Origin: Geobacter metallireducens GS-15
Lineage (GTDB): Bacteria > Desulfobacterota > Desulfuromonadia > Geobacterales > Geobacteraceae
Reading direction: 5' to 3'
DNA length: 32,000 nt
NCBI RefSeq assembly: GCF_000012925.1
Contig: NC_007517.1
Span: 3,930,001 to 3,962,000 of the forward strand
Shown: positions 2,975 to 31,084 of the stretch, in pieces
Position numbering within the stretch: the stretch's first letter is position 1
Layout: each line of letters begins with the position of its first letter
Notes under the pieces: model-generated
Database searches by the model: none
Seen by the model: only the letters and a program-made list of their open reading frames with translations
What the model was told of the DNA's origin: nothing
Position numbers and translations under genes: made by a program

Positions 2975-5008
2975 ATGAACATTTCCCTGGTCTTCCCCCC
3001 CTTTCATCTCCAGTCCCTCTACAATCTCCCCCCCCTGGGACTCATCAGCCTCGCCACGGTGCTGGGTGAGGCGGGGCACCGTGCGGTCATCCGCGACCTG
3101 GTGCTGGCCCTGCGGCAGGGAAGCCTCGGCATGGGAAAGGAGCTGTACGGGGAGGCGGCACGGATGATCCTCCGGGACGATCCGGACTTGGTCGGCTTTT
3201 CCGCCCAATGCACCACCTTCCCGGCAGTCGTCCGGATCGCCCGGCTCCTCAAGGAACAAAAGCCCGACCTGCGCATCGTGGCGGGTGGGCACAACGTCTC
3301 CTTCCTCGACGTCCCCACCCTTGAGCGCTTCCCCTGGATTGACGCCGTGGTCCGGGGCGAGGGAGAGGTGACGTTCCGGGAACTGGCAGCCTCCTTTGCA
3401 GTCGGCAATGATCCTGCGGAGGTAGCGGGAGTTACCTGGCGCCGGGGCACGGAGATCGTCCGCAATCCCGACCGGGAGTTGATTGCCGACCTCGACACCC
3501 TTCCCCTCCCCGACTACACCCTCGTCCCCCCCCTGGCCAGCTACCGCGACGCCTGCGGCATCCCCCGGAGCATCGCCATCCTCGAAGTGGGGCGAGGCTG
3601 CCCCCACCGGTGCGTCTACTGCTCAGAGTCGGTCATGTGGCGGCGACGGACCCGGACCTTCTCCATTCCCCGGCTGATCCGCGAGATGGAGGAACTCCAC
3701 GGCCGCTTCGGCGCCGAGTGCCTCGTCCTCGCCTACGACCAGTTCACGGCGGACCGGCGCTTCGTGGAGGAGTTCTGCAACCGGGTCATCGATGCCCGGC
3801 TGAACCGCGTCCCCTGGTACTGCATCTCCCGGCTCGATTCCCTCGACAGGCCGCTCCTCGACCTCATGCGCGAAGCGGGGTGCGAGTCCATGTGCTACGG
3901 GATCGACTCCGGCTCCCGCAGGACCCTGGCGTTCATCGGCAAGGAGATCGACGAGGGGATCCTCTACCAGCGGGTGCGGGAGACCACCGAGGCGGGGATG
4001 GTTCCCACCCTGAGCTTTGTTATCGGCTTTCCCGAGGAGGAGCGCGAGGATATCGACCAAACCCTCTTCCTCGCCCTGAAGGCGGGAGTCCAGGGGAACA
4101 GCGCTCCCCTCGTCCAGCTCCCGACGGTCCTGGCGGGGACCGAGCTCCACCGGCGCTATACCGGCCGCCTTGTCAGGGAGGTGGACACCTACTTCTCCCT
4201 CGGCCTCGAATTCGACCATGGCCGCCGCCTGGCCGACGACGAGCGTCTCATCGATGCCGACCCCTTCCTTTTCAGTTCCTTCTACAACCTCCCCTGCGCC
4301 GGGGTTCCCCTGGCGGAGCTGGACCGGATCGCCCGGTGGTTTCCCCTCATCCTCAACGGCTACCCCAAGTCGTTCATCCTCCTCTCCCTGGCCCTCGGCC
4401 GGCCTCCCAGCAACCTCTTCCGGGAAATCCTCTCCCGGCTGGAGGAGGACGGGTGGCGCGAGGATGACCCGACGGCCGAAACCGCTTTCCTGGAGCGCTT
4501 TCCCTGCCATGCCGAAGGGCTCATGGCCGGAAGCGCCTCGTGGCCCCACTTCGCCGAAATCCTCACCTACGAGACCCTGGCGCTACGGGCGACCCATCGC
4601 GGTCCGCCCCGCGCGGACGGGGCCGGACCGCTCAAGGGCGACCCCGCTGGGGAGTGCCGGCCGGTGCTCCGGGAAGAAGTCACAGTGTCCGAATTCCGCC
4701 GGAACCTGCCGGCGATCATCGCCGACCTGAAGAGCGGCATCTTCAGGGAGTCCTACCCCCCGGAGCCGACGCTCCTCATCTTCTATCCCTCGGGGGAGAG
4801 GCTTGAGGTGATGGAGATCAACCGGTTCGGCAAGGATTTTCTCCTCCTCTGCAACGGCTTGGCCACCTGCGAGGAGATCGCGGCGACGCTGTACGGAGAG
4901 TACGGCGACGCCATGGATTCCGGCGCGTTCAGCGAAGAGTGCAAGGACGCCCTTACCGTGTTCACGGGGATGGGACTCGTCCGCGACGGTGCGGCACCCG
5001 CCCCTTGA
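2975..5008 (+). CDS. B12-binding-domain radical SAM protein with C-terminal PqqD/RRE-like domain (putative RiPP maturase)
   Basis: The N-terminal 140 aa or so look like a cobalamin-binding Rossmann module (LGLISLATVLGEAGH, DLVGFSAQCTT, IVAGGHNVSF). The radical SAM cluster motif is CPHRCVYC (Cys209/213/216, nt 3599-3622). No later Cys-rich SPASM/twitch block is present. Residues about 597-669 (nt 4763-4981; LLIFYPSGERLEVMEINRFGKDFLLLCNGLATCEEIAATLYGEYG...LTVFTGMGLV) fit the PqqD-family peptide-recognition pattern. Confidence 0.85.
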   Translation: MNISLVFPPFHLQSLYNLPPLGLISLATVLGEAGHRAVIRDLVLALRQGSLGMGKELYGEAARMILRDDPDLVGFSAQCTTFPAVVRIARLLKEQKPDLRIVAGGHNVSFLDVPTLERFPWIDAVVRGEGEVTFRELAASFAVGNDPAEVAGVTWRRGTEIVRNPDRELIADLDTLPLPDYTLVPPLASYRDACGIPRSIAILEVGRGCPHRCVYCSESVMWRRRTRTFSIPRLIREMEELHGRFGAECLVLAYDQFTADRRFVEEFCNRVIDARLNRVPWYCISRLDSLDRPLLDLMREAGCESMCYGIDSGSRRTLAFIGKEIDEGILYQRVRETTEAGMVPTLSFVIGFPEEEREDIDQTLFLALKAGVQGNSAPLVQLPTVLAGTELHRRYTGRLVREVDTYFSLGLEFDHGRRLADDERLIDADPFLFSSFYNLPCAGVPLAELDRIARWFPLILNGYPKSFILLSLALGRPPSNLFREILSRLEEDGWREDDPTAETAFLERFPCHAEGLMAGSASWPHFAEILTYETLALRATHRGPPRADGAGPLKGDPAGECRPVLREEVTVSEFRRNLPAIIADLKSGIFRESYPPEPTLLIFYPSGERLEVMEINRFGKDFLLLCNGLATCEEIAATLYGEYGDAMDSGAFSEECKDALTVFTGMGLVRDGAAPAP

Positions 5009-5045
5009 CACGCTCTTCTCATCCCACGGAAAGGAGGTGATTCCC

Positions 5046-5171
5046 GTGTTGAAGATCAGGACGATCGAATCAAAAGCCATGTCGACGGCTGCCTGTCACG
5101 GTCCGGCGTGCCATTCGCCGGCTTGCCACTCACCCGCATGTCATGCACCTGCGTGCCATGCCCCGGCATAG
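5046..5171 (+). CDS. putative RiPP precursor peptide, 41 aa, five tandem A-C-H-x-P repeats
   Basis: A GTG at 5046 lies 8 nt after AAGGAGG (5031-5037) and 37 nt after the rSAM stop. The product is (M)LKIRTIESKAMSTA-ACHGP-ACHSP-ACHSP-ACHAP-ACHAP-A. Alternative in-frame starts are TTG 5049 and ATG 5079. The 4989 start in the track would overlap the rSAM gene and has no SD. Confidence 0.7.
   Translation: MLKIRTIESKAMSTAACHGPACHSPACHSPACHAPACHAPA
5091..5165 (+). repeat. five 15-nt coding repeats (A-C-H-x-P units)
   Basis: gcc tgt cac ggt ccg / gcg tgc cat tcg ccg / gct tgc cac tca ccc / gca tgt cat gca cct / gcg tgc cat gcc ccg. The period is exact and the peptide motif is conserved, but codon choice differs in nearly every unit. 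Confidence 0.95.
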
Positions 5172-5193: not shown

Positions 5194-5229
5194 GAGCGGG
5201 TTGACGCCATGGTCTGCCCGCTCTTTTTC
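5194..5229 (+). terminator. hairpin plus T-run after the precursor ORF (possible partial terminator)
   Basis: GAGCGGG (5194-5200) pairs with CCCGCTC (5217-5223), with an inner GAC/GTC pairing, followed by TTTTT (5224-5228). A second perfect hairpin GTTCCGC-TGCT-GCGGAAC lies at 5230-5247, just before the SD of the next gene. Confidence 0.45.
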
Positions 5230-5262: not shown

Positions 5263-6246
5263 GTGTCGCTGCATCCCGCGGACTTCATTGAAAAACCGCC
5301 GCGCTTCCCGGTCGTCGACGGCCACGTGGACCTCGTCTACGACCTGATGCGCCGTCACCCCGGAATCCCCTTCGAGCAGGTGGCAGACGGGCAGGTAACC
5401 GCCCAATCACTAAAGAAGGGAGGAGTGTGGGTGCTGGTGGCTGCCCTCTACTGCGCCGACAGCCACAACGGTCCCGCGAGCGCCGCGCGGGAGATGCGGC
5501 GGCTCCACGACTACGCCTGCCGATACCTGGAATGGTTCGCGCTACTCCGGAGTCCCGGGGAGATGGCGGCCGCCCTCGGAGGAAGCGGCCCCCCCGGCAT
5601 CGTCTTTCTCGTCGAAAATGCCGACGCCCTGCTGGAGCTGGACCTGGACGAGGTACGGCGTTGGGGAGTGAGGGCCGTGGGGCTGACCCATGCCGGCAGA
5701 AACCGGCTGGCCGACGGCAACGGCGTTACCGACCCGAAGGGGCTGACCGCTGCGGGGAAAAGTCTGGTGAGGAGCATCGCCGGCGCTGGCCTCATCCTCG
5801 ACGTGGCTCACCTGGCCGAGCCTGGTTTCCGGGAGGTGGCTTCCCTCGTCACTGGCCCCCTCATCTCCTCCCACACGGGGCTTCGCTCCTTCTGCGACCG
5901 CCCCCGCAACCTCTCCGATCCCCAGGTGGCCGAGATTGCCCGCCGGGGAGGGGTGGTGGGAATTTCCGCCGCTCCCGAGATGCTTGTTCCCGGAGGAACG
6001 GCGACCCTCGACGACCTCTTCCGCCAGGTCGATCACGTGGTTCAGCGGCATGGACCGGAGGCGGTCGGCATCGGGAGCGATTTCGGCGGGTTCGACGACA
6101 CGGCAAAGGGAGCGGAGGACCACGGCGGACTTCCCCTCCTGGCGGAGCGCCTCCTGGGGGCGGGCTATCCCGCCGGGGCAGTGGGGCTCATCATGGGGGG
6201 AAACTGGTGCCGGATCTACGGGGGAATTCCCGGCGGACCGGCATGA
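5263..6246 (+). CDS. membrane-dipeptidase family (peptidase M19) zinc hydrolase
   Basis: GTG start with GAGGAG 4 nt upstream. Family hallmarks are VDGHVDLVYDL, VENADAL, VRAVGLTHAGRNRLADG, LILDVAHLAE, PLISSHTG...RPRNLSD and IGSDFGG. Confidence 0.8.
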   Translation: MSLHPADFIEKPPRFPVVDGHVDLVYDLMRRHPGIPFEQVADGQVTAQSLKKGGVWVLVAALYCADSHNGPASAAREMRRLHDYACRYLEWFALLRSPGEMAAALGGSGPPGIVFLVENADALLELDLDEVRRWGVRAVGLTHAGRNRLADGNGVTDPKGLTAAGKSLVRSIAGAGLILDVAHLAEPGFREVASLVTGPLISSHTGLRSFCDRPRNLSDPQVAEIARRGGVVGISAAPEMLVPGGTATLDDLFRQVDHVVQRHGPEAVGIGSDFGGFDDTAKGAEDHGGLPLLAERLLGAGYPAGAVGLIMGGNWCRIYGGIPGGPA

Positions 6247-6322: not shown

Positions 6323-6352
6323 TTGACACGCCCGACATCCCACAATTATGAT
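6323..6352 (+). promoter_or_regulatory. sigma-70-type promoter of the metal-efflux operon
   Basis: TTGACA (6323-6328), an 18-nt spacer, then TATGAT (6347-6352); alternatively N17 and TTATGA. A perfect 10-bp palindrome TTTCATGAAA at 6363-6372 lies just downstream and could be an operator. Confidence 0.5.
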
Positions 6353-6398
6353 ATTCCTCACTTTCATGAAAGCCTGGCAATTGCGTACGGGACCAGCC

Positions 6399-6752
6399 AT
6401 GTTCAACAAAATCATAGCCGTTTTGCTCATCATGGCCGTCATCACCATTGCCGGCAACGGGCTTTGTTTCGCGCAGGATAACGACCATTGCCCCCAGGCA
6501 TCCTGCGCCAAGGCCGGGACGGTTCTGAAGGCGGATTGCGGAGACGCAAGCCCCTGCTGTCCCGATGATGGCGGGGATACCGAGGGGCACTGCCACTGCT
6601 GTCTCTCCTGCCCGTGCCACGCCCCGCTGAACAGCCAGCCCCCCCTGATTTCCTATTCGCCTCTTGTCATCAGCTTGTCGTTCCTCGAACACCTCAACGC
6701 GCCACCGGACGTGTACCGCTCCATCTTTGTCCCTCCCCAGATACAAGCCTGA
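6399..6752 (+). CDS. Cys/His-rich secreted protein, first gene of the RND efflux operon
   Basis: MFNKIIAVLLIMAVITIAGNGLCFA is a Sec-type signal. The mature part carries 10 Cys and 5 His (DHCPQASC, ADCGDASPCCPDD, GHCHCCLSCPCHAP) and ends in a Pro-rich tail (PPDVYRSIFVPPQ). The SD is weak and the start is uncertain (ATG 6366 is also possible). Confidence 0.55.
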   Translation: MFNKIIAVLLIMAVITIAGNGLCFAQDNDHCPQASCAKAGTVLKADCGDASPCCPDDGGDTEGHCHCCLSCPCHAPLNSQPPLISYSPLVISLSFLEHLNAPPDVYRSIFVPPQIQA

Positions 6753-6874
6753 TCCGCTGAAGCAACGGCCCCGCAGCCGTGGGGAATTCGTGCGCCCTTA
6801 GTCCGAATTTCCACCCTTCAGCGCCACTCTGTCACCCACAATTCAACCCAGCAAATCAGCAAGGAGGTGCTGTC

Positions 6875-8182
6875 TTGTCGCGAGCGTATCGTTTCGTGCC
6901 CGGAGCGGTCCATCTGCTCCTGGCGTCATTGGTTCTTTCCCCCCAGGGAGCCTCGGGTGAAATGCACTCGCTGACCCTGCCGCAGGCTGTGGAGTATGCC
7001 CTCGTCAACAACGGCGAGCTGAAGGCGCTGCGCGCCGAAAAGGAGGTGGCCCGGGCCGGGCTGGAGCGGGCCGCGCTCTTTCCCAACCCCACCCTGGAGT
7101 TGTCCGGAGATACCGGTGCCCTGACCGGCAGTTCCGGCGAGAACGTCGTCTCAATCGGCCTTTCCCAGGAATTCCTCACCGGCGGCAAGCGGGCAAAGCG
7201 CCGGGCCGTCGCCGAGGTGGAGGCGGAGGAGGTCCGCCAGCAGATTGCCGACCGGGAAAGAACCCTTGCCCTGGAGGTGAAGAGCACGTTTGCCGAGTTC
7301 ATGCTGGCCCACAAAAGGCGGGAGCTGGCCCAGCGGGCCGTGGAACTGAACGGGAAGCTGCTGGAGATAACGCGGGAGCGCCTGGCAGCCGGGGATATCC
7401 CGGAGCTTGAGGTGAATCTCGCCCAGGTGGAGCTGGCTCGGAGCGAAGGGCGAAAAATCGAGACCGTGCGCGGGCTCAGCCCCCTTCTGGCCCGACTGCT
7501 GACCCTCCTGGGGCTCCCGACAGGGGATGAGGTCAATTTAGCCGACTCTCCCGAACGGCAGCCCGTAACTATCCCCCCCGATGAGCTCACCCGCCTCGCC
7601 CTGGAAAACCGCCCCGACCTGAAGGCGCTCCAGGCTGCCCACGACAGGGGGGACGCCGCGGTGGAACTGGCCGAGGCGGAGCGCATCCCGAATGTGATTG
7701 TTGGAGTCGGCTACACCCACGAGCAACGGGTGGACGCCACCGGCGTCGGAGAAGAAAAGACCCGCGACAACCTCCTGGGAATGAAACTTTCCATCCCGCT
7801 CCCCGTATTCGACCGGAACCAGGCCGGCATCCTCGAAGCCCGGGCCAGGGCGCAGAGCGCCGGGAACCGGCTGGAGTTCGCCCGCACGGGCGTGGCCCGG
7901 GAGATCGACGGGGACTATGCCCGGCTGGCGACGGCGGACAAGGCCCTCGACCTCTATACCGGCGGCATCCTCCCCCAGTTGGAGGAGAACCTGAAGATCA
8001 TCCAGGAGGCCTACCAGCTGGGCGAGGTGGGGATCCTCTCAGTCATCGAGGAACAGAAGAAATACATTGAGGTCCACGACGGCTACCTCGCCGCCCTTGC
8101 CGACCGGCAGACCGCCCTGGCGCGGCTCGAAGCCTCGGTGGGGGTCGATTTCCAGAACAAGACCAGCGGAGGTGCGCAGTGA
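6875..8182 (+). CDS. TolC-family outer membrane efflux protein (CzcC/CusC-like)
   Basis: LTLPQAVEYALVNNGELKALRAE..., with the two-repeat OEP architecture. TTG start at 6875, 7 nt after AAGGAGG (6861-6867). The upstream part of the ORF has no signal-like sequence. Confidence 0.85.
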   Translation: MSRAYRFVPGAVHLLLASLVLSPQGASGEMHSLTLPQAVEYALVNNGELKALRAEKEVARAGLERAALFPNPTLELSGDTGALTGSSGENVVSIGLSQEFLTGGKRAKRRAVAEVEAEEVRQQIADRERTLALEVKSTFAEFMLAHKRRELAQRAVELNGKLLEITRERLAAGDIPELEVNLAQVELARSEGRKIETVRGLSPLLARLLTLLGLPTGDEVNLADSPERQPVTIPPDELTRLALENRPDLKALQAAHDRGDAAVELAEAERIPNVIVGVGYTHEQRVDATGVGEEKTRDNLLGMKLSIPLPVFDRNQAGILEARARAQSAGNRLEFARTGVAREIDGDYARLATADKALDLYTGGILPQLEENLKIIQEAYQLGEVGILSVIEEQKKYIEVHDGYLAALADRQTALARLEASVGVDFQNKTSGGAQ

Positions 8183-9453
8183 ACAGGAAAAACGGAATCA
8201 TAATCGGCATCATCCTGGCCATGGCCGTCGGCGGTGCCTTTGTCTATCGCTCTACCCATGTGAAAGGGGGCGCCGGCGAGCACGCCGAAACGAAGGAGGC
8301 CGGCCATACGGATGAAAAGGGAGGCCACGAAGAGGGGAAGCACGAGGGAGAGAAGGAAGGTCATGAAGGCCATGATGAGCATGGGGAAGAAGGGACGATC
8401 AAGATGACCGCCGAGGTGCAGAAGCAGAACGGCGTGGCCGTTGCTCCGGCCCAAAAACAGCGGCTCGCCGGCGCGATCAGCGCCACCGGCAAGGTGGAGG
8501 CCAATGCCGACCGGATCGCCCATGTCTCGCCGCGCATCTCCGGCAAGATCGTCAGCGTCCGGGCCTCCCTCGGAGACGGCGTCGCCGCCGGGCAGCCCCT
8601 GGTGACCCTGGACAGCGTCGAACTGGGTGAGGCCCTGAACCGCTACCACCAGTCAAAGACACGGCTCGCCCTGGCCCAGTCCAATATGGACCGGATCAAG
8701 GCGCTGGTGGAGAAGAAGATTGCAGCCCGCAAGGACATCCTCCAGGCGGAGACCGACTACAAGATGGCGCAGACGGAACTCCATACCGATGAAGAACGCC
8801 TCTCCCTCTATGGCGTTTCAACCTCTGACCTCGGAAAGGCAAACCACCGGAAGCCGCTCCTGCCGGTCCGCTCCCCCATCGGCGGCATCATCACCGAAAA
8901 ACACGCCATCGTCGGCGAGCTGGCCGACCCATCCAAGAGCCTCTACACCGTGGCTGACCTTTCGTCGGTCTGGGTGATGGTGGACATCAACGAAAAAGAT
9001 CTGGTCAAGATTCACCGGGGGCAGACTGCCGCCGTCACCGTCAGCGCCTTTCCCGACCTGAAACTGAAGGGGCGGATCACCTACATCGCCGACCTGGTTG
9101 ACGAATCAACCCGCACGGTCAAGGCCCGGGTCGAGGTGGCCAATCCGGGGCGGAAGCTGAAGCCGGAGATGTTCGCCACTATTGAGTTGACGCTGGCGGC
9201 CGACGCGCCGCCGGTCCTGGCCGTCCCCGAGGATGCCCTGCAGGACCTGGACGGGAAAAAGGTGCTCTTCATCGCGGAGAAGGACTCCGAATTCGCTGCC
9301 CGTCCCGTGCAGACCGGCCGGGCGGCCGGCGGTCTGGTGGAGATCGTTTCCGGTCTGAAGGAGGGTGAGAACTACGCCGTCAAGGGCTCGTTCATCCTCA
9401 AGTCGGAGATCAAGAAGGGTGAGATGACCGACGAGCACGGCCACGGCAAATGA
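8179..9453 (+). CDS. RND efflux periplasmic adaptor (CzcB/CusB-like) with His-rich termini
   Basis: GTG start overlapping the upstream stop (GTGA). An N-terminal anchor is followed by HAETKEAGHTDEKGGHEEGKHEGEKEGHEGHDEHGEEG. Lipoyl/beta-barrel adaptor motifs are present (VSPRISGKIVSV, VRSPIGGIITE), and the C-terminus is DEHGHGK. Confidence 0.9.
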   Translation: MNRKNGIIIGIILAMAVGGAFVYRSTHVKGGAGEHAETKEAGHTDEKGGHEEGKHEGEKEGHEGHDEHGEEGTIKMTAEVQKQNGVAVAPAQKQRLAGAISATGKVEANADRIAHVSPRISGKIVSVRASLGDGVAAGQPLVTLDSVELGEALNRYHQSKTRLALAQSNMDRIKALVEKKIAARKDILQAETDYKMAQTELHTDEERLSLYGVSTSDLGKANHRKPLLPVRSPIGGIITEKHAIVGELADPSKSLYTVADLSSVWVMVDINEKDLVKIHRGQTAAVTVSAFPDLKLKGRITYIADLVDESTRTVKARVEVANPGRKLKPEMFATIELTLAADAPPVLAVPEDALQDLDGKKVLFIAEKDSEFAARPVQTGRAAGGLVEIVSGLKEGENYAVKGSFILKSEIKKGEMTDEHGHGK

Positions 9454-9458
9454 TAATA

Positions 9459-9560
9459 CCCTCTCCCTATGGGAGAGGGCTAGGGTGAGGGGGATATGTT
9501 GCTGCCTCCCTGTTTTCCCCTCATCCGGCCTTCGGCCACCTTCTCCCATGGGGAGAAGGT
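9459..9560. repeat. structured REP-like intergenic repeat, copy 2 (adaptor-pump spacer)
   Basis: It has the same two conserved modules as 148-247 but lacks the CTGATTGGCA terminal repeats. It fills most of the 132-nt spacer between the adaptor and RND pump genes. Hairpins are CCCTCTCCC-tat-GGGAGAGGG and CCTTCTCCC-atg-GGGAGAAGG. Confidence 0.8.
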
Positions 9561-9585
9561 GTTACGACTACAGGAGATACAGTTC

Positions 9586-12500
9586 ATGCTGGAAAAACTC
9601 ATTGCCTATACGTTGCGGCAGAAAGGAATGATCATCTTCCTGGCGCTGCTGATTATCGTCGCGGGACTGTATTCGTACGCGAGACTCCCCATCGACGCCT
9701 TTCCCGACGTGACCAACATCCAGGTGGAGGTTGTCAGCCACGCCGACGGCCTGTCGGCCATCGAAATTGAGAGGAACGTCACCTACCCCATCGAGATGGC
9801 CATGCGGGGGCTCCCCGACATTGAACAGATGCGCTCGGTCACCAAATTCGGCCTCTCCATCGTCACCATCGTCTTCAAGGACAACGTGGATATCTACTTC
9901 GCCCGGCAGCTGGTGTTTGAGCGACTGGCAGAGGCCCGGGAGAAGGTGCCGAAGGGAGTCGAGGTCGCCATGGGGCCCATCGGCACCGCCATGGGGGAGA
10001 TCTACCAGTACACCCTGGAAGGAAAGATGCCCCAGGATCCGCAGCAGAAGACGGCCTACCTGACCAACCTGCGGACCGTCCAGGAATGGATCGTGACCCC
10101 GCAGCTGAAGAACGTGGCCGGGGTGAACGAGATCAACTCCTTCGGCGGCTATTTCAAGCAGTACCAGGTGCTCGTGGCGCCGGAAAAGCTCCTGAAGTAC
10201 GGCATCACCGTGGATGACGTCTACACCGCCATCGGCAGCAACAACGAGAACGTGGGGGGCAACCTCCTGGAGCGGGGGACGGACCAGTACATCGTCCGCG
10301 GCGTCGGCCTGATCAAGGATGTGGGGGACATCGAGAACATTGTCCTCAGGTCGGCGGGGGGGACCCCCACCTACATCCGCGACGTGGCCCAGGTGAAGGT
10401 GGGTGAGGCGGTCCGCATGGGGGCCGCCATGAAGGACGGCAAGGATGAGTGCGTCGGCGGCATCGTCATGATGCTGCGGGGCGAGAACAGCCGCGACGTG
10501 GTGCGCCGGGTTGCGGAAAAAGTGAAGGAAATCAACGAGAACAACGTCCTGCCGGAAGGGATCAAGATCGTTCCCTATTACGACCGGAGCGACATCGTCA
10601 AGGCCAGCGTCGGCACGGTCAACAAGGCGCTCATCGAAGGTTCTATCCTGGTCCTGATCGTTCTCTATCTGCTCCTGAACAGCATCCGGGGGAGCATCGT
10701 AGTCCTGATCGCCCTCCCCCTCTCCCTCCTGGCGACGTTCGTCGTGATGAAGCTCTCGGGAATCAGCGCCAACCTCATGTCGCTGGGGGGCCTGGCCATC
10801 TCCATCGGGATGATCATCGACACCACCATCATCCAGGTGGAGAACGTGCAGCGGCACCTAAGCGAAGAAGGGGAACGCCATCCCAAACTGGTGACGGTGC
10901 TGAAGGCGGTCATGGAGGTGCGCAAACCGAGTATCTTCGGCGAAATGATCATCGCTATCACCTTCATCCCGATCCTGGCTCTGGAGGGGATCGAAGGGAA
11001 GATGTTCGGCCCCCTGGCCATCACCGTGGCCATTGCCCTCCTGGCGTCCCTGCTCCTTTCCATTTTCATCATCCCAGTGCTCTGCAGCCTCTTCCTGAAG
11101 CCGGATCCGGAAAAGGAGAGCGTCATCATGCAGCGGGCCCACCGGCTCTACGAGCCGCTCCTCGACTACGCCATGAACAAGCGGCGCGTGGTGCTCGGGG
11201 TGGCCGGAACGCTCCTGGTGGTCTCCCTCGTCATGGTGACCCGGCTCGGGACGGAGTTCATCCCTACCATGGATGAAGGCTCCTTCGACATGGATGTCTC
11301 CCTGCTCCCCGGTGTTTCCCTGGCCAAGGCCATGGAGGTCAACCAGCGGGTTGCAGAGAAACTGAAGCAGTTCCCCGAGCTGGGAACGGTGGTGTCGCGG
11401 ACCGGCCAGACCGGCGTGGCCCTGGACACCAGGGGGTCGGACAAGACCGGCTACGTGGGGATCTTCAAGCCGAAGGACGAATGGCCGCGGGACATCTCCA
11501 AGGAAGAGCTCACCAACGAGATGCGCGAGTCCCTGGAGTCCATCGCCGGCATCACCTTCGGCTTCAGCCAGCCTATCCAGTGCCGCATCGACGAGCTGGT
11601 GGCCGGAACCCGGGCGCAGCTGATCCTCAAGCTCTTCGGCGACGACATCGACGTGCTCAGTGCAAAGTCCCAGGAGATCGCCAAGGTCCTCTCCACCATC
11701 AGGGGCGGCACCGACCTGAACGCCGAAAAGGTCTCCGGACAGCCCTACCTGACCGTCAACATCGACCGGGCAAAAATCGCCCGCTACGGCCTCAACATCA
11801 GCGACGTGCAGAAGGTGATCGAAATCGCCGTTGCCGGCAAGGCGGCATCGCAGCTCTACGAGGAGAACCGCAGCTTCGACATCACGGTGCGTCTGCCGGA
11901 GGAGAAGCGCAACTCCCTGGACGCCATCAACAACCTGATCATCACCACGAAGACCGGGGTCAACGTCCCCCTCCAGCAGCTGGCCGAGGTGAAGATGATC
12001 GAAGGCCCGGTGCAGATCAGCCGCCAGGACGGGGTGCGCCGCATCGGGATCGAGATGAACATCACCGGCCGGGACATCGGCAGCTTCGTTTCCGAGGCGA
12101 AGCAGAAGATCAGGGAAGAAGTGAAGCTCCCCCCCGGTTACTACCTCACCTGGGGCGGGCAGTTCGAGAACCAGCAGCGGGCCATGAAGAAGCTGATGAT
12201 CATCGGACCGGTGGCCATCGGCCTGATCCTGCTCCTCCTCTACGTCACCTTCCGTTCGATCCGCCTGGCGTTCCTGGTCATCGCCAACCTCCCCTTTGCC
12301 CTGATCGGCGGGGTATTCGCGCTCTTCATCTCCGGGCAGTACCTGTCGGTGCCGGCCTCGGTGGGGTTCGTGGTCCTCTTCGGCGTTGCCGTCCTGAACG
12401 GCCTCGTGCTGGTGTCACGGATCTCACAACTGCGGGAGGAGGGGCTGGAACTGGAGGAGGCCATCCGCAAAGGTGCCGCCGACCGACTGCGGCCAGTGCT

Positions 12501-12690
12501 GATGACCGCCTCCATCGCCATCTTCAGCCTGATCCCCATGCTCCTGGCCGGCGGCACCGGCTCGGAGATTCAGAAACCGCTGGCAACGGTTGTCGTGGGC
12601 GGACTGGTGACGTCCACCCTGCTGACGCTTCTGGTCATTCCGTCGGTGTATGGCTGGTTTGAAAAGAGGAAGGTGGAGGAAGAGGTATGA
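9586..12690 (+). CDS. CusA/CzcA-family heavy-metal efflux RND transporter
   Basis: 1034 aa from MLEKLIAYTLRQKGMIIFLALLII, with AGGAGA upstream. It has 12-TM RND topology and the TM4 motif GGLAISIGMIIDTTIIQVEN. The longer ORF start at 9496 lies inside the repeat and was rejected. Confidence 0.9.
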   Translation: MLEKLIAYTLRQKGMIIFLALLIIVAGLYSYARLPIDAFPDVTNIQVEVVSHADGLSAIEIERNVTYPIEMAMRGLPDIEQMRSVTKFGLSIVTIVFKDNVDIYFARQLVFERLAEAREKVPKGVEVAMGPIGTAMGEIYQYTLEGKMPQDPQQKTAYLTNLRTVQEWIVTPQLKNVAGVNEINSFGGYFKQYQVLVAPEKLLKYGITVDDVYTAIGSNNENVGGNLLERGTDQYIVRGVGLIKDVGDIENIVLRSAGGTPTYIRDVAQVKVGEAVRMGAAMKDGKDECVGGIVMMLRGENSRDVVRRVAEKVKEINENNVLPEGIKIVPYYDRSDIVKASVGTVNKALIEGSILVLIVLYLLLNSIRGSIVVLIALPLSLLATFVVMKLSGISANLMSLGGLAISIGMIIDTTIIQVENVQRHLSEEGERHPKLVTVLKAVMEVRKPSIFGEMIIAITFIPILALEGIEGKMFGPLAITVAIALLASLLLSIFIIPVLCSLFLKPDPEKESVIMQRAHRLYEPLLDYAMNKRRVVLGVAGTLLVVSLVMVTRLGTEFIPTMDEGSFDMDVSLLPGVSLAKAMEVNQRVAEKLKQFPELGTVVSRTGQTGVALDTRGSDKTGYVGIFKPKDEWPRDISKEELTNEMRESLESIAGITFGFSQPIQCRIDELVAGTRAQLILKLFGDDIDVLSAKSQEIAKVLSTIRGGTDLNAEKVSGQPYLTVNIDRAKIARYGLNISDVQKVIEIAVAGKAASQLYEENRSFDITVRLPEEKRNSLDAINNLIITTKTGVNVPLQQLAEVKMIEGPVQISRQDGVRRIGIEMNITGRDIGSFVSEAKQKIREEVKLPPGYYLTWGGQFENQQRAMKKLMIIGPVAIGLILLLLYVTFRSIRLAFLVIANLPFALIGGVFALFISGQYLSVPASVGFVVLFGVAVLNGLVLVSRISQLREEGLELEEAIRKGAADRLRPVLMTASIAIFSLIPMLLAGGTGSEIQKPLATVVVGGLVTSTLLTLLVIPSVYGWFEKRKVEEEV

Positions 12691-13621: not shown

Positions 13622-13820
13622 CGCTGCGTTCCTCCCTCTCGTTTTTCTGCTCGAATGACTACACCAGCCGGAACCATATAAGGCTTCCCTCCCGTTGCAT
13701 CGTCGCCATGCAGGATTACAATGGTTGTACCCTTTTATAGCATCTCACCGGGTTTTTTAAAAAGACAGACTACGCGACACCACGAGCTTCGCCCCGGTGG
13801 CCCTCACGAAGGAGCACAGC

Positions 13821-16800
13821 ATGCACAGCAGCGAACTGAACGCCAGAATCGTCAGCCGCGGCAAGGAATTTTTCACCAGCATCGCCGGCGAGAAGCCGTC
13901 CCTCTTCGACAAGGGGGCCTGGATGGGAAAGGCCATGGACTGGAGCATGCGGAACGACCAGTTCAAGGTCCAGCTGTTCCGGTTCGTGGACGTGTTCCCC
14001 TCCCTCACCACCAGCAGGCTCCTGACGGAGCACATCCGCGAGTACTTCGGGGATGAGGAGGCAATGCCCCCGTTCATGGCCACTGGGGCCAAGGTGGCGG
14101 GGATGCTCGGCTCCTTCGGCGGCGCCGTGCTGAACCGGGTGCTCACCTCCAATGTCGAGGATATGGCCCGCCAGTTCATCGTGGGTGAAACCACGAAGGA
14201 GGCGGTGAAGAACCTGGAAAAACTCCGGAAAGACGGCTTCGCCGCCGTGGTGGATGTCCTCGGCGAGGCGACTCTTTCGGAGGAGGAGGCCGAGGCCTAC
14301 ACGAACACGTACCTGGAGCTTCTGGAGACGCTGAAGAAGGAGCAGGGAACCTGGAAGGGACTACCGGGCACGGGGGGCGATCCGGATCTCGACTGGGGCC
14401 ACGCCCCCAGGGTGAATATCGCGGTAAAGCCCACGGCCCTCTACTGTCTCGCCAATCCCCAGGATTTCGAGGGGTCGGTGGTCGCCATCCTGAACCGGAT
14501 GCGCCGCATCTTCCGGAAGGTCATGGCGCTAAACGGCTTCCTCTGTATCGACATGGAATCGTACCGCTTCAAGGACATGACTCTGGAGGTCTTTCGCCGC
14601 CTCAGGCTGGAGCATCCGGGCTATCCCCACCTGGGGATCGCGCTCCAGGCCTACCAGAAGGATACGGACCGGGACCTGGACGGCCTCCTGGCCTGGGCGA
14701 AGGAGCAGGGGGTCCCGATCTCCATCCGCCTCGTGAAGGGGGCCTACTGGGACTACGAGACCGTCCGGGCCCGGCAGAACGGCTGGGAGGTGCCGGTATG
14801 GACCATCAAGGCCGAAACCGATGCCGCCTTCGAGCGCCAGTCCCGAAAGATTCTGGAAAACCACGCCGTCTGCCACTTCGCCTGCGGCTCCCACAACATC
14901 CGCACCATTTCGGCGGTCATGGAGCTGGCGCGGGAACTGAACGTCCCCCCTGACCGCTACGAGTTCCAGGTCCTCTACGGCATGGCCGAGCCGGTCCGCA
15001 AGGGGATCCTCAGGGTTGCGGGGCGCATCCGCCTCTACTGTCCCTACGGGAGCATGGTGCCGGGGATGGGGTACCTGGTGCGCCGGCTCCTGGAGAACAC
15101 CGCCAACGAATCGTTTCTGCGCAAGAGCTTTGCCGAGGAGGCCCGGATCGAACAGCTCCTGGAAGACCCGGCCGTGGCGGCGGAGCGGGAGCGGGAAGCC
15201 CGGGCCGCCAGGCCGGAAAAGGAGCGGACGGGCCCCGACGGTCTCCCCCCCTTCGGGAACGAGCCGATGGTGGATTTCACCCGGCCCGACCACCGCGCCG
15301 CCTTTCCGGATGCGTTGGCCCGGGTGCGGACTCAACGTGGAAAAACCTATCCCCTCTTCATCAACGGTAAAGAGGTCCTGACCGCCGAACTCATGCCGAC
15401 CGTGAACCCCAACAACCCCTCCGAGGTCCTGGGGCAGATCTGCCAGGCCGGGACAAAGGAGGCGGGGGATGCCGTCGCCGCAGCCAAGGCCGCCTTTCCG
15501 GCGTGGCGCGACACCGATCCCCGGACCCGCGCCGACTATCTCCTCAAGGCAGCTCTGATAGCCCGCACGCGGATTTTCGACCTCTCCGCCTGGCAGATCC
15601 TCGAAATCGGCAAGCAGTGGGACCAGGCCTATGCCGACGTGACCGAGGCCATTGATTTTCTGGAATACTACGCCCGGGAGATGATGCGGTTGGGAGAGCC
15701 CCAACGGCTCGGCCACGCACCGGGGGAGCTGAACCATTACTGCTACGAGCCCCGGGGAGTGGCCGCGGTCATCGCCCCCTGGAACTTCCCCCTGGCCATC
15801 AGCACGGGGATGGCTGCGGCGGCAATCGTCACCGGCAACTGCGTGGTCTACAAGCCGTCGGGCCTCACCCCCATCGTCGGCTGGCACCTGGCGGAGCTCT
15901 TCCGGGAGGCGAGGCTCCCCGACGGGGTCTTCAACTACGTGCCGGGGCGGAGCTCGGTCATGGGAGACTACTTGGTGGACCACCCGGACGTGAGCCTCAT
16001 CGCCTTCACCGGCTCCCTGGAGACGGGCTTGAGGATCAACGAGCGGGCCGCCAGGGTCCAGCCTGGTCAGGCCAACGTGAAACGGGTCATCTGCGAGATG
16101 GGGGGGAAGAACGCCATCATCATCGACGACGACGCGGACCTGGACGAGGCGGTCCCCCAGGTGCTCTCATCGGCCTTCGGGTTCCAGGGGCAGAAGTGCT
16201 CGGCCTGCTCCCGGGTCATCGTGCTGGACGCCATCCATGACCGGTTCGTGGCGCGGCTCGTGGCCATGGCCCGGGCCATCTCGGTGGGTCCGCCGGAGGA
16301 CCCGGCCCACTCCATGGGGGCCGTGGCCGACGACAACGCCATGAAGAGGATCAGGGAGTACATTGAAATCGGGAAAACGGAGGGGCAGCTCCTCCACGAA
16401 GGGCCGGTGCCGGCCGGCACCGGGTACTACGTCCCCATGACCATCATCGGCGGCATCCGGCCCGAGCACTGCATCGCCCGGGAGGAGATCTTCGGCCCGG
16501 TGCTGGCGGTCATGCGGGCCAAGGACTTCGATGAGGCCATCCAATGGGCAAACGCCCCCCGGTTTGCCCTCACGGGAGGGGTCTTCAGCCGCAGCCCCGA
16601 GCACCTGGCAAAGGCGAGGCGGGAGTTTCGGGTGGGAAACCTCTACCTCAACCGCGGCATCACCGGCGCCCTCGTGGAGCGGCAACCCTTTGGCGGCTCC
16701 CGCATGTCGGGGGGAGGGACCAAGGCGGGGGGACCTGACTACCTCCTCCACTTCATGGACCCGCGAACGGTGACCGAGAACACCATGCGGCGCGGCTTCG

Positions 16801-16832
16801 CGCCGAGCGACGAGGAGAGCGGCCGCCTTTAA
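13821..16832 (+). CDS. putA: bifunctional proline dehydrogenase / L-glutamate gamma-semialdehyde (P5C) dehydrogenase, PutA-like without DNA-binding domain
   Basis: The N-terminal half is a PRODH TIM-barrel (IDMESY, VKGAYWDYE, YGMAEP, LVRRLLENTANESFL). The C-terminal half is an ALDH (WNFPLAI, EMGGKN, GQKCSACSR). ATG 13821 lies 7 nt after AAGGAG. Confidence 0.9.
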   Translation: MHSSELNARIVSRGKEFFTSIAGEKPSLFDKGAWMGKAMDWSMRNDQFKVQLFRFVDVFPSLTTSRLLTEHIREYFGDEEAMPPFMATGAKVAGMLGSFGGAVLNRVLTSNVEDMARQFIVGETTKEAVKNLEKLRKDGFAAVVDVLGEATLSEEEAEAYTNTYLELLETLKKEQGTWKGLPGTGGDPDLDWGHAPRVNIAVKPTALYCLANPQDFEGSVVAILNRMRRIFRKVMALNGFLCIDMESYRFKDMTLEVFRRLRLEHPGYPHLGIALQAYQKDTDRDLDGLLAWAKEQGVPISIRLVKGAYWDYETVRARQNGWEVPVWTIKAETDAAFERQSRKILENHAVCHFACGSHNIRTISAVMELARELNVPPDRYEFQVLYGMAEPVRKGILRVAGRIRLYCPYGSMVPGMGYLVRRLLENTANESFLRKSFAEEARIEQLLEDPAVAAEREREARAARPEKERTGPDGLPPFGNEPMVDFTRPDHRAAFPDALARVRTQRGKTYPLFINGKEVLTAELMPTVNPNNPSEVLGQICQAGTKEAGDAVAAAKAAFPAWRDTDPRTRADYLLKAALIARTRIFDLSAWQILEIGKQWDQAYADVTEAIDFLEYYAREMMRLGEPQRLGHAPGELNHYCYEPRGVAAVIAPWNFPLAISTGMAAAAIVTGNCVVYKPSGLTPIVGWHLAELFREARLPDGVFNYVPGRSSVMGDYLVDHPDVSLIAFTGSLETGLRINERAARVQPGQANVKRVICEMGGKNAIIIDDDADLDEAVPQVLSSAFGFQGQKCSACSRVIVLDAIHDRFVARLVAMARAISVGPPEDPAHSMGAVADDNAMKRIREYIEIGKTEGQLLHEGPVPAGTGYYVPMTIIGGIRPEHCIAREEIFGPVLAVMRAKDFDEAIQWANAPRFALTGGVFSRSPEHLAKARREFRVGNLYLNRGITGALVERQPFGGSRMSGGGTKAGGPDYLLHFMDPRTVTENTMRRGFAPSDEESGRL

Positions 16833-29758: not shown

Positions 29759-31084
29759 GGTTCATCCGGGAATTCCGGGGAAAGCGGCCCTGATCTTGAG
29801 AAAGAAGTATTCGTGATCCCGGAAGCCGTAGGCCATTCTTTTGATCACCTTGATCTTGTTATTGATGCCTTCGAGGATTCCGGTGTGAAGGGGCCAGAGG
29901 CAGTGATTGAGGATTCCTTGGAGATAGCCCTTTAGCCGGCGGGCAAACAGGATGAGTGGCGGTATTCCACTCTCCATCGCCCTTTGGTGCCACTGCTCCC
30001 AGAATAGTCCCGCCTCTTCAATGCAGGTAAACTTCCACAGTTGCTTCAGATCGTCTTTGAGCAGGTAGACCGTAAGGAGGCTGCGGTTTGCCTCCAACAG
30101 TTCCTGGAGGCGAAGCATGTCGTCGCCCTTGACGTTCTCGCTGTTTCGTAGCAGCAACCACCGCGATGTTTTGACTACCTTCCGTGCCTTCTTGTCTTCC
30201 TTCAGGCGGTTTGCCTCATCGACTCGCACCCTGTCGATCACTTCCCTGCCATACTTCGCCACCACATGGAACAGGTCGTAGACTATGTCTGCCTGGGGCG
30301 AGTGCTGCTTGATTTCCTCCTCATATGATGCGTTCATATCCATCACGACCGCTTTGAGCCGTTTACAGCCATGTGGGCCAAGCTGCGTGAAGAAAGGACG
30401 GATACTCTCGCGACTCCTGCCTTTGCCGATCCATAAGACTTCCTTACGGTATGGCTCGATGATAACCGTCGCATAGCGGTGCCCCTTGTGAAGGGCGAAC
30501 TCATCCATCCCGAGAACTTCGATGTTTGAGAGGTCGACGGTGCCGACCCGCTCTGTGAGTGAGCGCTTGTCGATTTCCTTCACCTGGTCCCAAGAAAGCC
30601 CCAGATACTGCGCCACGTGCTTCACAGACACGACACCACACAGTCGCGCTACGCTCTCTGCAAGCCTGCGCGTCACGCGGGCGTATTTCGCCAGCCATGA
30701 CAGACGCTCCAGCGTTGGCCCACACTGAGGGCACAGCAGCCTGCGGCGGTGAACGATCAGATAAGTCTGAGCATCGAGAATCGGCAAATCTCGAATTACG
30801 CGCTTGGTCGTTTCATGGACGCTTGTGCAACGCCCACCGCACGAGCCACACACCATCTCATCCTGGGACAGGGCAATCAGTTCTACCTCGATCCGTTTGG
30901 CATCACTTGTGACGATAGTGCGTGCCCCAGCAACACGATATCCTTCCCACCCTCCCGCAATTGCGATAACATCGGAATACGACAACGGCAGCCTCCTGCG
31001 ATCTTTTTTGGTTGGGGAACCATCAAGATACCGCAGTGCTGCCGTTGTTGTTTATTAATCTTCCCCGGAATTCCCTGAAGAACC
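29759..31084 (-). mobile_element. intact ISL3-family insertion sequence (1326 bp)
   Basis: Terminal inverted repeats GGTTCATCCGGGAATTCCGGGGAA (29759-29782) and the reverse complement of 31061-31084 (GGTTCTTCAGGGAATTCCGGGGAA) match at 22 of 24 positions. A perfect 8-bp target duplication TAATTTTT lies at 29751-29758 and 31085-31092. A single transposase ORF fills the element. Confidence 0.9.
29762..30985 (-). CDS. ISL3-family transposase
   Basis: 407 aa with an N-terminal zinc-finger-like CGSCGG...CPQCG and a core with DEFALHKGHRYATVI, AVVMDMNASY and DLFHVV. TTG start 6 nt after AGGAGG. The stop lies inside the left inverted repeat. Confidence 0.9.
   Translation of the reverse strand: MSYSDVIAIAGGWEGYRVAGARTIVTSDAKRIEVELIALSQDEMVCGSCGGRCTSVHETTKRVIRDLPILDAQTYLIVHRRRLLCPQCGPTLERLSWLAKYARVTRRLAESVARLCGVVSVKHVAQYLGLSWDQVKEIDKRSLTERVGTVDLSNIEVLGMDEFALHKGHRYATVIIEPYRKEVLWIGKGRSRESIRPFFTQLGPHGCKRLKAVVMDMNASYEEEIKQHSPQADIVYDLFHVVAKYGREVIDRVRVDEANRLKEDKKARKVVKTSRWLLLRNSENVKGDDMLRLQELLEANRSLLTVYLLKDDLKQLWKFTCIEEAGLFWEQWHQRAMESGIPPLILFARRLKGYLQGILNHCLWPLHTGILEGINNKIKVIKRMAYGFRDHEYFFLKIRAAFPGIPG

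Follow-up and report, generated by a model that had tools for sequence, protein, structure and literature searches.

A conserved CHxP-repeat precursor gene beside a B12-binding radical SAM enzyme in Geobacter metallireducens and its possible link to thio- and selenohistidine biosynthesis

The window analyzed here, a stretch of 32,000 nucleotides from Geobacter metallireducens GS-15 (contig NC_007517.1, positions 3,930,001 to 3,962,000), contains at positions 5046-5171 of its forward strand a short open reading frame (ORF) that encodes five ACHxP repeats between the genes for a radical S-adenosylmethionine (SAM) enzyme and a dipeptidase. The question raised by this locus is whether such a repeat is a real, translated gene and, if so, what might be made from its product. 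The comparisons described below identify the ORF as a precursor gene of the type that gives rise to peptides synthesized on the ribosome and modified post-translationally (RiPPs), and they lead us to propose, tentatively, that its Cys-His pairs serve as the source of an ovothiol-like or ovoselenol-like molecule.

A conserved and unannotated small gene

The elements of the peptide gene and its immediate surroundings are the following:

5046-5171, + strand: precursor peptide gene, 41 codons, with a GTG start at 5046 and a TAG stop at 5169-5171
5046-5090, + strand: leader region, 15 codons, fM-LKIRTIESKAMSTA, kept in 58 genome loci and about 79 metagenome loci
5091-5171, + strand: core region, five A-C-H-(G/S/S/A/A)-P units, a final Ala and the TAG
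5033-5037, + strand: Shine-Dalgarno sequence GGAGG, 8 nt 5′ of the GTG, as read from the sequence
5194-5228, + strand: terminator-like GC hairpin (GAGCGGG...CCCGCTC followed by TTTTT) between the peptide and dipeptidase genes

Translation of 5046-5171 gives V (fM)LKIRTIESKAMSTA, followed by ACHGP, ACHSP, ACHSP, ACHAP and ACHAP and a final A, with units starting at 5091, 5106, 5121, 5136 and 5151, and thus confirms the five 15-nt units described in the first-pass annotation of this DNA. The codon scrambling reported there (four Ala, both Cys, both His, three Pro and two Ser codons) was also found to be exact. In unit order, the codons are GCC/GCG/GCT/GCA/GCG for the Ala at position 1, TGT/TGC/TGC/TGT/TGC for Cys, CAC/CAT/CAC/CAT/CAT for His and CCG/CCG/CCC/CCT/CCG for Pro, and the two Ser units use TCG and TCA. 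Pairwise nucleotide identity between units of the window is only 9-13/15, and Tandem Repeats Finder reported a period-15 array with 74% matches. A degenerate two-unit pattern gave four overlapping matches in the window, all of them at 5091-5164, and none in 100 window shuffles.

A genome scan with the radical SAM protein encoded upstream of the peptide yielded 80 species-level loci from Geobacter, Desulfuromonas, Pelobacter, Desulfobacterales, Syntrophobacterales, Desulfarculales and Desulfovibrionales. The next small ORF after the radical SAM gene encoded the same leader, with the consensus M-L-K-I-K-K-V-E-K-K-x-S-x-A-A, and three to nine CH(A/G/S)P units in 58 of these 80 loci, in addition to the window. 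Across the 382 CHxP units of the window and these 58 species-level genomes, no amino-acid change was observed at Cys, His or Pro, and the synonymous codons were mixed almost evenly: TGT 163 and TGC 219 for Cys, CAC 165 and CAT 217 for His, and CCG 181, CCC 73, CCT 77 and CCA 51 for Pro. The x position was occupied by A in 301 units, by G in 51 and by S in 30. The view of the first-pass annotation that the pattern reflects selection on the peptide, and neither slippage nor noise, is borne out by this combination of invariant residues and synonymous turnover.

The alignment of orthologous regions, which the same annotation had named as the test that could refute it, revealed neither frameshifts nor free amino-acid drift. 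The only in-frame stops in the orthologs were TGA codons at the Cys position, each of them followed by a hairpin that resembles a selenocysteine insertion sequence (SECIS). As had also been noted, the leader has 15 residues and no signal peptide, and it proved to be conserved across the family. The statement that only the fourth position of each unit varies holds within the window and fails in the family, where the spacer after CHxP is also variable (A, S, T, V or others) and optional. Since long variable spacers occur in L059 and none at all in L071, it is C-H-x-P, and not the five-residue period, that forms the functional unit. Repeat number changes by whole units only, with a range of 3 to 13 over genome and metagenome loci; together with the variable or absent spacers and the single-unit selenocysteine (Sec) relatives described below, this indicates that CHxP units act independently. 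The peptide genes of the window and of G. hydrogenophilus, whose radical SAM protein is 92% identical to that of the window, are separated by exactly one 15-nt unit, three synonymous substitutions and a single change in the leader.

In a reverse search, a three-unit DNA pattern was run against metagenomes and returned 120 loci, of which 54 had a radical SAM homolog beside the peptide, about 25 had the same leader with no radical SAM gene on the contig, and the other 41 were unrelated matches. Altogether, the peptide lies directly 3′ of the radical SAM gene in 58 Cys-type and 9 Sec-type loci of the 80 genome loci, and in the 54 metagenome loci. At L034 and L051 the radical SAM gene is followed directly by the dipeptidase gene with no peptide in between, and at L052:4490-4560 the radical SAM C-terminus runs into ...ESPVRR*, as if the leader and UHAPT of a Sec-type peptide had been deleted. 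These three loci suggest that the precursor is occasionally lost or relocated.

The use of position 5046 as the start is supported by the alignment of the ATG of the homologs with the window GTG, and the homologs carry GGAGG-type sequences, encoding KGGD/KEV, at the same place upstream of the peptide start. Despite this conservation, the peptide is absent from the resources that we searched. No NCBIfam or Pfam family was matched, the sole match being a sub-threshold one to CefA; a word-index search of protein databases with the peptide gave no match; and six exact peptide look-ups found none, the window sequence being missing from a collection of 15 billion proteins. In public contigs that contain the window radical SAM protein, no gene was called between the radical SAM and dipeptidase genes. 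At L204:4738-4977, L205:4773-4979 and L206:4833-4973, gene calls cover the CHAP peptide in the wrong frame, with products such as MQPVVMHRPATRHHVMPRR. The peptide is therefore not found in protein databases because gene callers skip it or select an overlapping wrong frame. The lack of annotation and of any exact database copy is what a chance ORF or an untranslated GC-rich repeat would also predict, but this explanation is effectively refuted by the conservation of frame, leader and C/H/P over more than 100 loci with synonymous turnover, by the Shine-Dalgarno sequence, and by the demonstrable choice of wrong overlapping frames by the callers. At the level of sequence comparison, these data establish 5046-5171 as a real, conserved, unannotated small gene.

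The hairpin at 5194-5228 is kept in G. hydrogenophilus with one loop change, and a comparable hairpin with a T-run occurs 45-75 nt past the peptide stop in 32 of 59 loci, with sequences that differ between lineages. The number of hairpins detected in the region by scanning was no higher than in shuffled sequences and is weak evidence. Attenuation between the precursor gene and those that lie downstream of it is a possible role of the 5194-5228 hairpin.

A RiPP-type precursor beside a B12-binding radical SAM enzyme

The gene upstream of the peptide and the domain found at its 3′ end are:

2975-5008, + strand: B12-binding radical SAM enzyme, 677 aa, with Pfam B12-binding and Radical_SAM domains and CxxxCxxC at C209/C213/C216
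4646-5005, + strand: C-terminal PqqD-like RiPP recognition element (RRE) of this enzyme, residues ~558-677

This protein, 100% identical to a 'Radical SAM domain protein' of G. metallireducens, is the presumed maturase of the peptide. Its C-terminus gave a weak match to Pfam PqqD (E 0.003, below threshold), and several homologs carry a precomputed PF05402 match. Modelled alone, the domain reached a predicted local distance difference test score (pLDDT) of 92 and had TglHI chain 8hi7_A as its top fold match (TMq 0.72), followed by PqqD (5sxy and 3g2b), lasso B1 with bound leader (6jx3_B), ThcOx and MibB, at Foldseek E-values of only 1e-3 to 0.1. These RRE-type fold matches indicate that the radical SAM enzyme carries its own leader-recognition domain, and that in RiPP terms the enzyme has the small ORF as its substrate. 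With an ORF co-conserved beside the radical SAM gene, a leader/core layout and an RRE in the enzyme, 5046-5171 is a RiPP-type precursor in which a leader and a C-H-x-P core stand beside an RRE-bearing B12-binding radical SAM enzyme.

Regarding the chemistry of the enzyme, its best NCBIfam match is ApyD, followed by BchE, HpnJ and RiPP C-methyltransferases. It is not an ApyD equivalog (NF050148), since it scored 258 bits against a cutoff of 750 and only residues 8-442 were aligned. The AlphaFold model (pLDDT 90.8) matched the folds of TokK, CysS, TsrM, MgmA, AprD4 and OxsB in the PDB, and TokK is the nearest solved structure by sequence. Outside the CxxxCxxC motif, cysteines C79, C194, C268, C283, C303, C307 and C656 are invariant. 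Some clusters of Desulfobacterales type also have, past the pyridoxal phosphate (PLP) enzyme gene, another B12-binding radical SAM gene that is shorter (~474 aa; L204:7270-8694, L205:7479-8394, L029:12370-13986 and L038:10597-12021).

These matches bear on the first and main alternative, in which the enzyme would be a C-methyltransferase forming beta-methyl-His, beta-methyl-Cys or an imidazole C-methyl group. The product would then be a modified Cys/His-rich peptide, or short fragments of it, with a redox or metal-binding role, and a second methyltransferase would N-methylate the peptide-bound His. The nearest characterized families are all methylases, C-methylation is the default chemistry for B12-binding radical SAM enzymes, the best folds are TokK, CysS, TsrM and MgmA, and ApyD itself, likewise an RRE-bearing enzyme, forms beta-methyl-Tyr in a peptide. 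B12-binding radical SAM enzymes have been reported to form C-S bonds as well as to methylate. We consider the alternative possible but rather unlikely, for reasons that emerge from the relatives and partners of the peptide described in the next section.

Selenocysteine-type relatives and conserved partner genes

Sec-type precursors were found in nine loci of the Syntrophobacter/Desulfarculales type (L054, L057, L061, L064, L065, L073, L074, L076 and L079; e.g. L057:8048-8164), in which the leader is kept and a single U-H-A-P motif is encoded through an in-frame TGA; in L054 and L064, CHVP units stand alongside UHAP. Their common sequence is ...VVPQ-TGA-CAY-GCN-CCN-ACN-GAA-TCT-CCG-GTN-CGG-AGA-TAA. 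In all nine loci the TGA occupies the Cys position of the family, and the ORF stays open for another 11 codons until TAA/TAG. The nucleotides of the tail HAPTESPVRR are conserved and include a 7-bp hairpin, with an invariant stem (AUCUCCG/CGGAGAU) and a GUC/GUU/GUA loop, that begins 14 nt past the UGA. Wobble bases vary freely over the four codons that precede the stem and do not change inside it. The loop of bacterial SECIS elements lies 16-37 nt from the UGA and has G/U at its start, and the geometry of the Sec-type hairpin fits these rules. Its folding z-score is only about −1, and an Rfam scan of two Sec-type loci (L057 and L073) matched no relevant family. We read the TGA of these relatives as selenocysteine, that is, as one half of a Cys/Sec pair, and the hairpin as SECIS-like. 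Such an exchange implies that the chalcogen of this residue is the functional atom. A further peptide at L002:8112-8279, from a Geobacter metagenome-assembled genome whose radical SAM protein is 71% identical to that of the window, has degenerate units (CNGP, YEAP and GYAP), two TGA-HGP motifs and a third TGA. After each TGA-HGP comes a similar CAYGGNCCGGCGAGCCGTG hairpin, beginning right at the UGA. Either a precursor with several Sec residues or a gene in decay could account for this peptide.

Partner genes were identified through all-against-all clustering of neighboring ORFs. The window holds one of them:

5263-6246, + strand: M19-family (renal-type) dipeptidase, 327 aa, Pfam Peptidase_M19 at E 3e-64

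The relatives of this dipeptidase in the PDB are Sco3058, GliJ and renal dipeptidase, and its gene adjoins in 47 of the 80 related loci in addition to the window. Directly 3′ of the peptide in 36 of the 80 loci lies a gene for a methyltransferase of ~312 aa, in which a Trm112-like zinc ribbon is fused to a methyltransferase domain. Its best NCBIfam family is TIGR04345, the 'putative 4-mercaptohistidine N1-methyltransferase' that corresponds to the OvoA C-terminal domain (ovoA_Cterm), matched by all 29 of the 29 members tested, the best E-value being 2.6e-36. When a profile built from the same 29 members was searched against all PDB sequences, it retrieved the 5-selenohistidine N-methyltransferase OvsM (E 5.6e-33), the OvoA methyltransferase domain (E 7e-32) and the 5-thiohistidine N-methyltransferase OvoM (E 1.2e-30), the next methyltransferase appearing at E 4e-12. 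OvoM, OvsM and OvoA are thus its only close solved relatives, and the alignment reaches the family-specific SPY/DPF-SW...W-L/I-GG region. OvsM is inactive on plain histidine.

A class-V PLP enzyme, encoded convergently after the dipeptidase in about 21 loci, resembles SufS, C-DES and selenocysteine lyase. It lacks the catalytic-Cys loop of SufS/IscS (...VLVAQRG-DAIRISPHFYN...), which rules it out as a cysteine desulfurase; it looks like a lyase and not like a persulfide-forming desulfurase. The two genuine IscS genes, found in L010 and L030, lie at a distance and are bystanders. An M3 (PepF-type) oligopeptidase occurs in 12 loci. When loci were collected starting from the methyltransferase, all three long contigs (3/3) carried M19, the B12-binding radical SAM gene, the CHAP peptide, the methyltransferase and Aminotran_5, with M3 present only in L206. 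The conserved partners (M19, methyltransferase, class-V PLP enzyme and M3) include no O2-dependent sulfoxide/selenoxide synthase of the OvoA/OvsA type, and no conserved exporter, immunity gene or leader protease was found among the clustered neighbors. Other recurrent neighbors of the cluster reflect local synteny.

Several of these observations are left unexplained by C-methylation: the swap of Cys for costly Sec, the conservation of a PLP lyase-like enzyme, a dipeptidase and an oligopeptidase as partners, and a methyltransferase of the 5-thio/selenohistidine type. The free variation of unit number and spacers argues, in addition, against a defined mature peptide. A second alternative is that Cys(Sec)-His or other thioether crosslinks are formed as in ranthipeptides or sactipeptides, with a product that remains a cross-linked peptide and peptidases that only remove the leader. 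Radical SAM RiPPs are known whose precursors repeat a motif and receive one crosslink in each, for example freyrasin/PapB, and the peptide has a weak, sub-threshold likeness to the 'Cys-every-fifth' CefA peptides. Yet the radical SAM enzyme has no SPASM/twitch domain and is not CefB-like, a dipeptidase would be an odd leader protease, no conserved exporter or immunity gene accompanies the cluster, the Sec-type precursors are single-unit, and the PLP lyase and the OvoM-like methyltransferase find no role. We therefore regard a cross-linked end product as improbable.

A second genomic context was observed in about 25 metagenome loci, mostly from peat, that have the same leader and 5-7 CHAP units and no B12-binding radical SAM gene on contigs of up to 14 kb; they include L090, L091, L095, L098, L117, L122, L144, L146, L174, L181, L186, L196, L199 (L199:4926-5126) and L203. 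In these loci an operon-like run comprises a HAD-like 156-aa protein, YedF, SelD and an ADP-ribosylglycohydrolase, with a MauE/DoxX-like membrane protein and an ArsS-like radical SAM (seleno)protein nearby, and L196 also has a rhodanese and a BcrAD/HGD-D pair. The scores for YedF ('selenium metabolism protein', 216 bits against a cutoff of 110) and SelD (370 bits against a cutoff of 125) are well above threshold. This context independently ties CHAP peptides to sulfur and selenium handling. Two different contexts share a large BadF/BcrA-type ATPase that is either fused to a 2-hydroxyacyl-CoA-dehydratase-like (HGD-D) protein or paired with one: it occurs upstream of the radical SAM gene in L003, L005, L012, L014-L016, L021 and L030, and at L196:3944-5937. 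A nitroreductase-family gene also recurs near CHAP-peptide loci.

The peptides beside selD and yedF, together with the position of the window cluster just 5′ of a Cys/His-rich secreted protein and czcCBA-type genes, would suit a third alternative, in which the peptide is an unmodified or S-methylated Cys/His-rich carrier of metal or selenium that serves CzcCBA efflux or SelD delivery. It is highly improbable: the Czc adjacency is limited to G. metallireducens and G. hydrogenophilus, a signal peptide is lacking, and a conserved leader with an RRE-bearing enzyme implies enzymatic modification. A functional tie to CzcCBA heavy-metal efflux was rejected on account of the same limited adjacency.

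As for the remaining surroundings in the window, the following features were recorded:

6348-6752, + strand: protein of 134 aa (or 117 aa) with a signal-peptide-like N-terminus and a Cys/His-rich stretch, HCHCCLSCPCHAP, that includes CHAP; no Pfam or NCBIfam match
6779-12690: czcC-, czcB- and czcA-like genes, directly 3′ of the preceding gene
1681-2742, − strand: upstream divergent PLP gene ('Beta_elim_lyase')
13797-16832, + strand: PutA-type proline dehydrogenase/aldehyde dehydrogenase, unrelated
29762-30985, − strand: ISL3-family transposase, unrelated

The gene at 1681-2742 was considered as the C-S lyase of the pathway and discarded, as it encodes an ordinary L-threonine aldolase (E 6e-152 to 5vye); it is not conserved at the other loci.

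A possible ribosomal route to thio- and selenohistidines

The reading that we prefer, at a rough probability of 40%, is that the gene encodes a multi-copy ribosomal precursor in which the chalcogen of each Cys or Sec is joined to the next His, to be released as an ovothiol-like or ovoselenol-like molecule. In the proposed pathway, the RRE would dock the leader and the radical SAM enzyme would act on each Cys-His pair, joining the Cys sulfur (or Sec selenium) to the imidazole ring of the His that comes next. Cutting of the modified peptide into units would then fall to the M3 oligopeptidase and/or general peptidases, and the M19 dipeptidase would open the Cys-His dipeptide to leave a His-Cys adduct. 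Cleavage of the Cys C-beta-S bond by a PLP beta-lyase, dedicated in many genomes and presumably housekeeping in G. metallireducens, would free 5-thio(seleno)histidine, which the OvoM/OvsM-type methyltransferase, where present, would N-methylate to an ovothiol-like or ovoselenol-like product. Several product copies per precursor could be obtained in this way without O2, with tandem units multiplying the yield. Sec-type precursors would be single-unit because each UGA needs its own SECIS. The locus in the window consists of enzyme, peptide and dipeptidase alone, so an unmethylated product would be expected from it, unless the other genes are located elsewhere in the genome.

Several points weigh against this proposal. 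Methylation is the prior expectation for the enzyme, whose nearest named relatives (ApyD, TokK, CysS, TsrM and MgmA) are methyltransferases, and a link from Cys to the adjacent His would probably require a strained nine-membered ring. The partner methyltransferase scores ~98 bits for TIGR04345, below the NCBIfam cutoff of 170, and the stem of the SECIS-like hairpin, invariant over the nine loci, offers no covariation. The window locus has three of the six components only, namely the radical SAM enzyme, the peptide and the dipeptidase, with no methyltransferase, PLP lyase or M3 homolog elsewhere in the 32 kb, and other Geobacter loci are likewise without the methyltransferase and the PLP lyase. 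A methyltransferase profile search for a G. metallireducens copy spoke neither for nor against one: the best 120 of 1377 matches had generic names and none was from that species. The evidence from gene neighborhoods is circumstantial and correlative, and the chemistry is deduced from sequence. The Geobacter loci without a dedicated lyase are not contradictory, as OvoB has been described as a lyase of broad specificity.

The known routes to ovothiol and ovoselenol use the O2-dependent OvoA and OvsA. In the full-text literature that we searched, subscription journals being outside its reach, anaerobic routes were described only for ergothioneine (EanB and MES), and we found no anaerobic ovothiol route and nothing that ties a ribosomal peptide or a radical SAM enzyme to CHAP-type peptides, thiohistidine or ovothiol. 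The broader claim, that strictly anaerobic Thermodesulfobacteriota make 5-thio- and 5-selenohistidines from a ribosomal multi-copy precursor through chalcogen transfer by a B12-binding radical SAM enzyme, is put forward with some reserve, and we hold it to be possible. If true, it would explain how anaerobes could obtain ovothiol-like thiol or selenol antioxidants without oxygen, and it would add a new reaction type for B12-binding radical SAM enzymes and link selenoprotein translation to selenometabolite biosynthesis. It would also be the first ovothiol route that needs no O2, the first thiohistidine to originate from the ribosome and the first instance in which the Sec-insertion machinery supplies a small metabolite with selenium; such a function would be categorically new for thiohistidine and selenometabolite biosynthesis. 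The secure part alone describes a widespread RiPP-type family, invisible to annotation, with hundreds of B12-binding radical SAM homologs and with Cys and Sec versions of the precursor. It spans Geobacter, Desulfuromonas, Desulfobacterales and Syntrophobacterales, and it can be tested directly in G. metallireducens, a genetically tractable model.

The family can be compared with several known systems. With the ApyA/ApyD system of aminopyruvatide it shares B12-binding, radical SAM and peptide-recognition domains and a short precursor gene in the cluster. Unlike ApyD, which beta-methylates one Tyr, the enzyme studied here faces a tandem Cys-His motif, has neither an MNIO nor a P450 partner, and aligns over the N-terminal 435 residues only. 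The ovothiol and ovoselenol pathways (OvoA/OvoB/OvoM; OvsA/OvsM) have putative counterparts here in the methyltransferase homolog and in a PLP lyase-like enzyme, as with OvoB, and a parallel in the existence of sulfur and selenium versions. In those pathways the substrates are free amino acids or a selenosugar, whereas Cys or Sec and His would come here from a ribosomal peptide; furthermore, the hosts are strict anaerobes, and the window itself has neither the methyltransferase nor the lyase.

Among radical SAM peptide systems, CefA/CefB (NF038108/NF038107) also combines a short precursor, with Cys every five residues, and an adjoining radical SAM enzyme. The CefA threshold was missed by five family members (15-21 bits against 30), and the five-residue spacing is not essential here, as seen in L059 and L071. 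In contrast with CefB, a SPASM protein that is not among the 25 best NCBIfam matches of the maturase, the latter is a B12-binding enzyme of class B. The SbtM (TIGR04082) thio(seleno)oxazole system, in which a radical SAM enzyme modifies Cys or Sec in Sec-containing RiPP precursors of Geobacter relatives within the Thermodesulfobacteriota, resembles the present one in offering Cys or Sec of a ribosomal peptide as the residue for radical SAM modification. SbtM differs in being SPASM-type and was not among the matches of our radical SAM enzyme, and the peptide motifs and partner genes are also different.

The principle of modifying a residue on an RRE-held scaffold, from which it is then excised by peptidases, is shared with 3-thiaglutamate (TglA/TglHI), pyrroloquinoline quinone and mycofactocin. 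Those systems give one molecule per peptide, whereas the CHxP precursors have 3-13 tandem units and another enzyme class. Finally, bufferins and the MNIO thiooxazole metallophores are likewise Cys-rich ribosomal peptides at metal stress loci, and the window cluster abuts czcCBA; unlike bufferins, the CHxP family has no MNIO (DUF692) enzyme and no signal peptide, and its adjacency to metal-efflux genes is not conserved.

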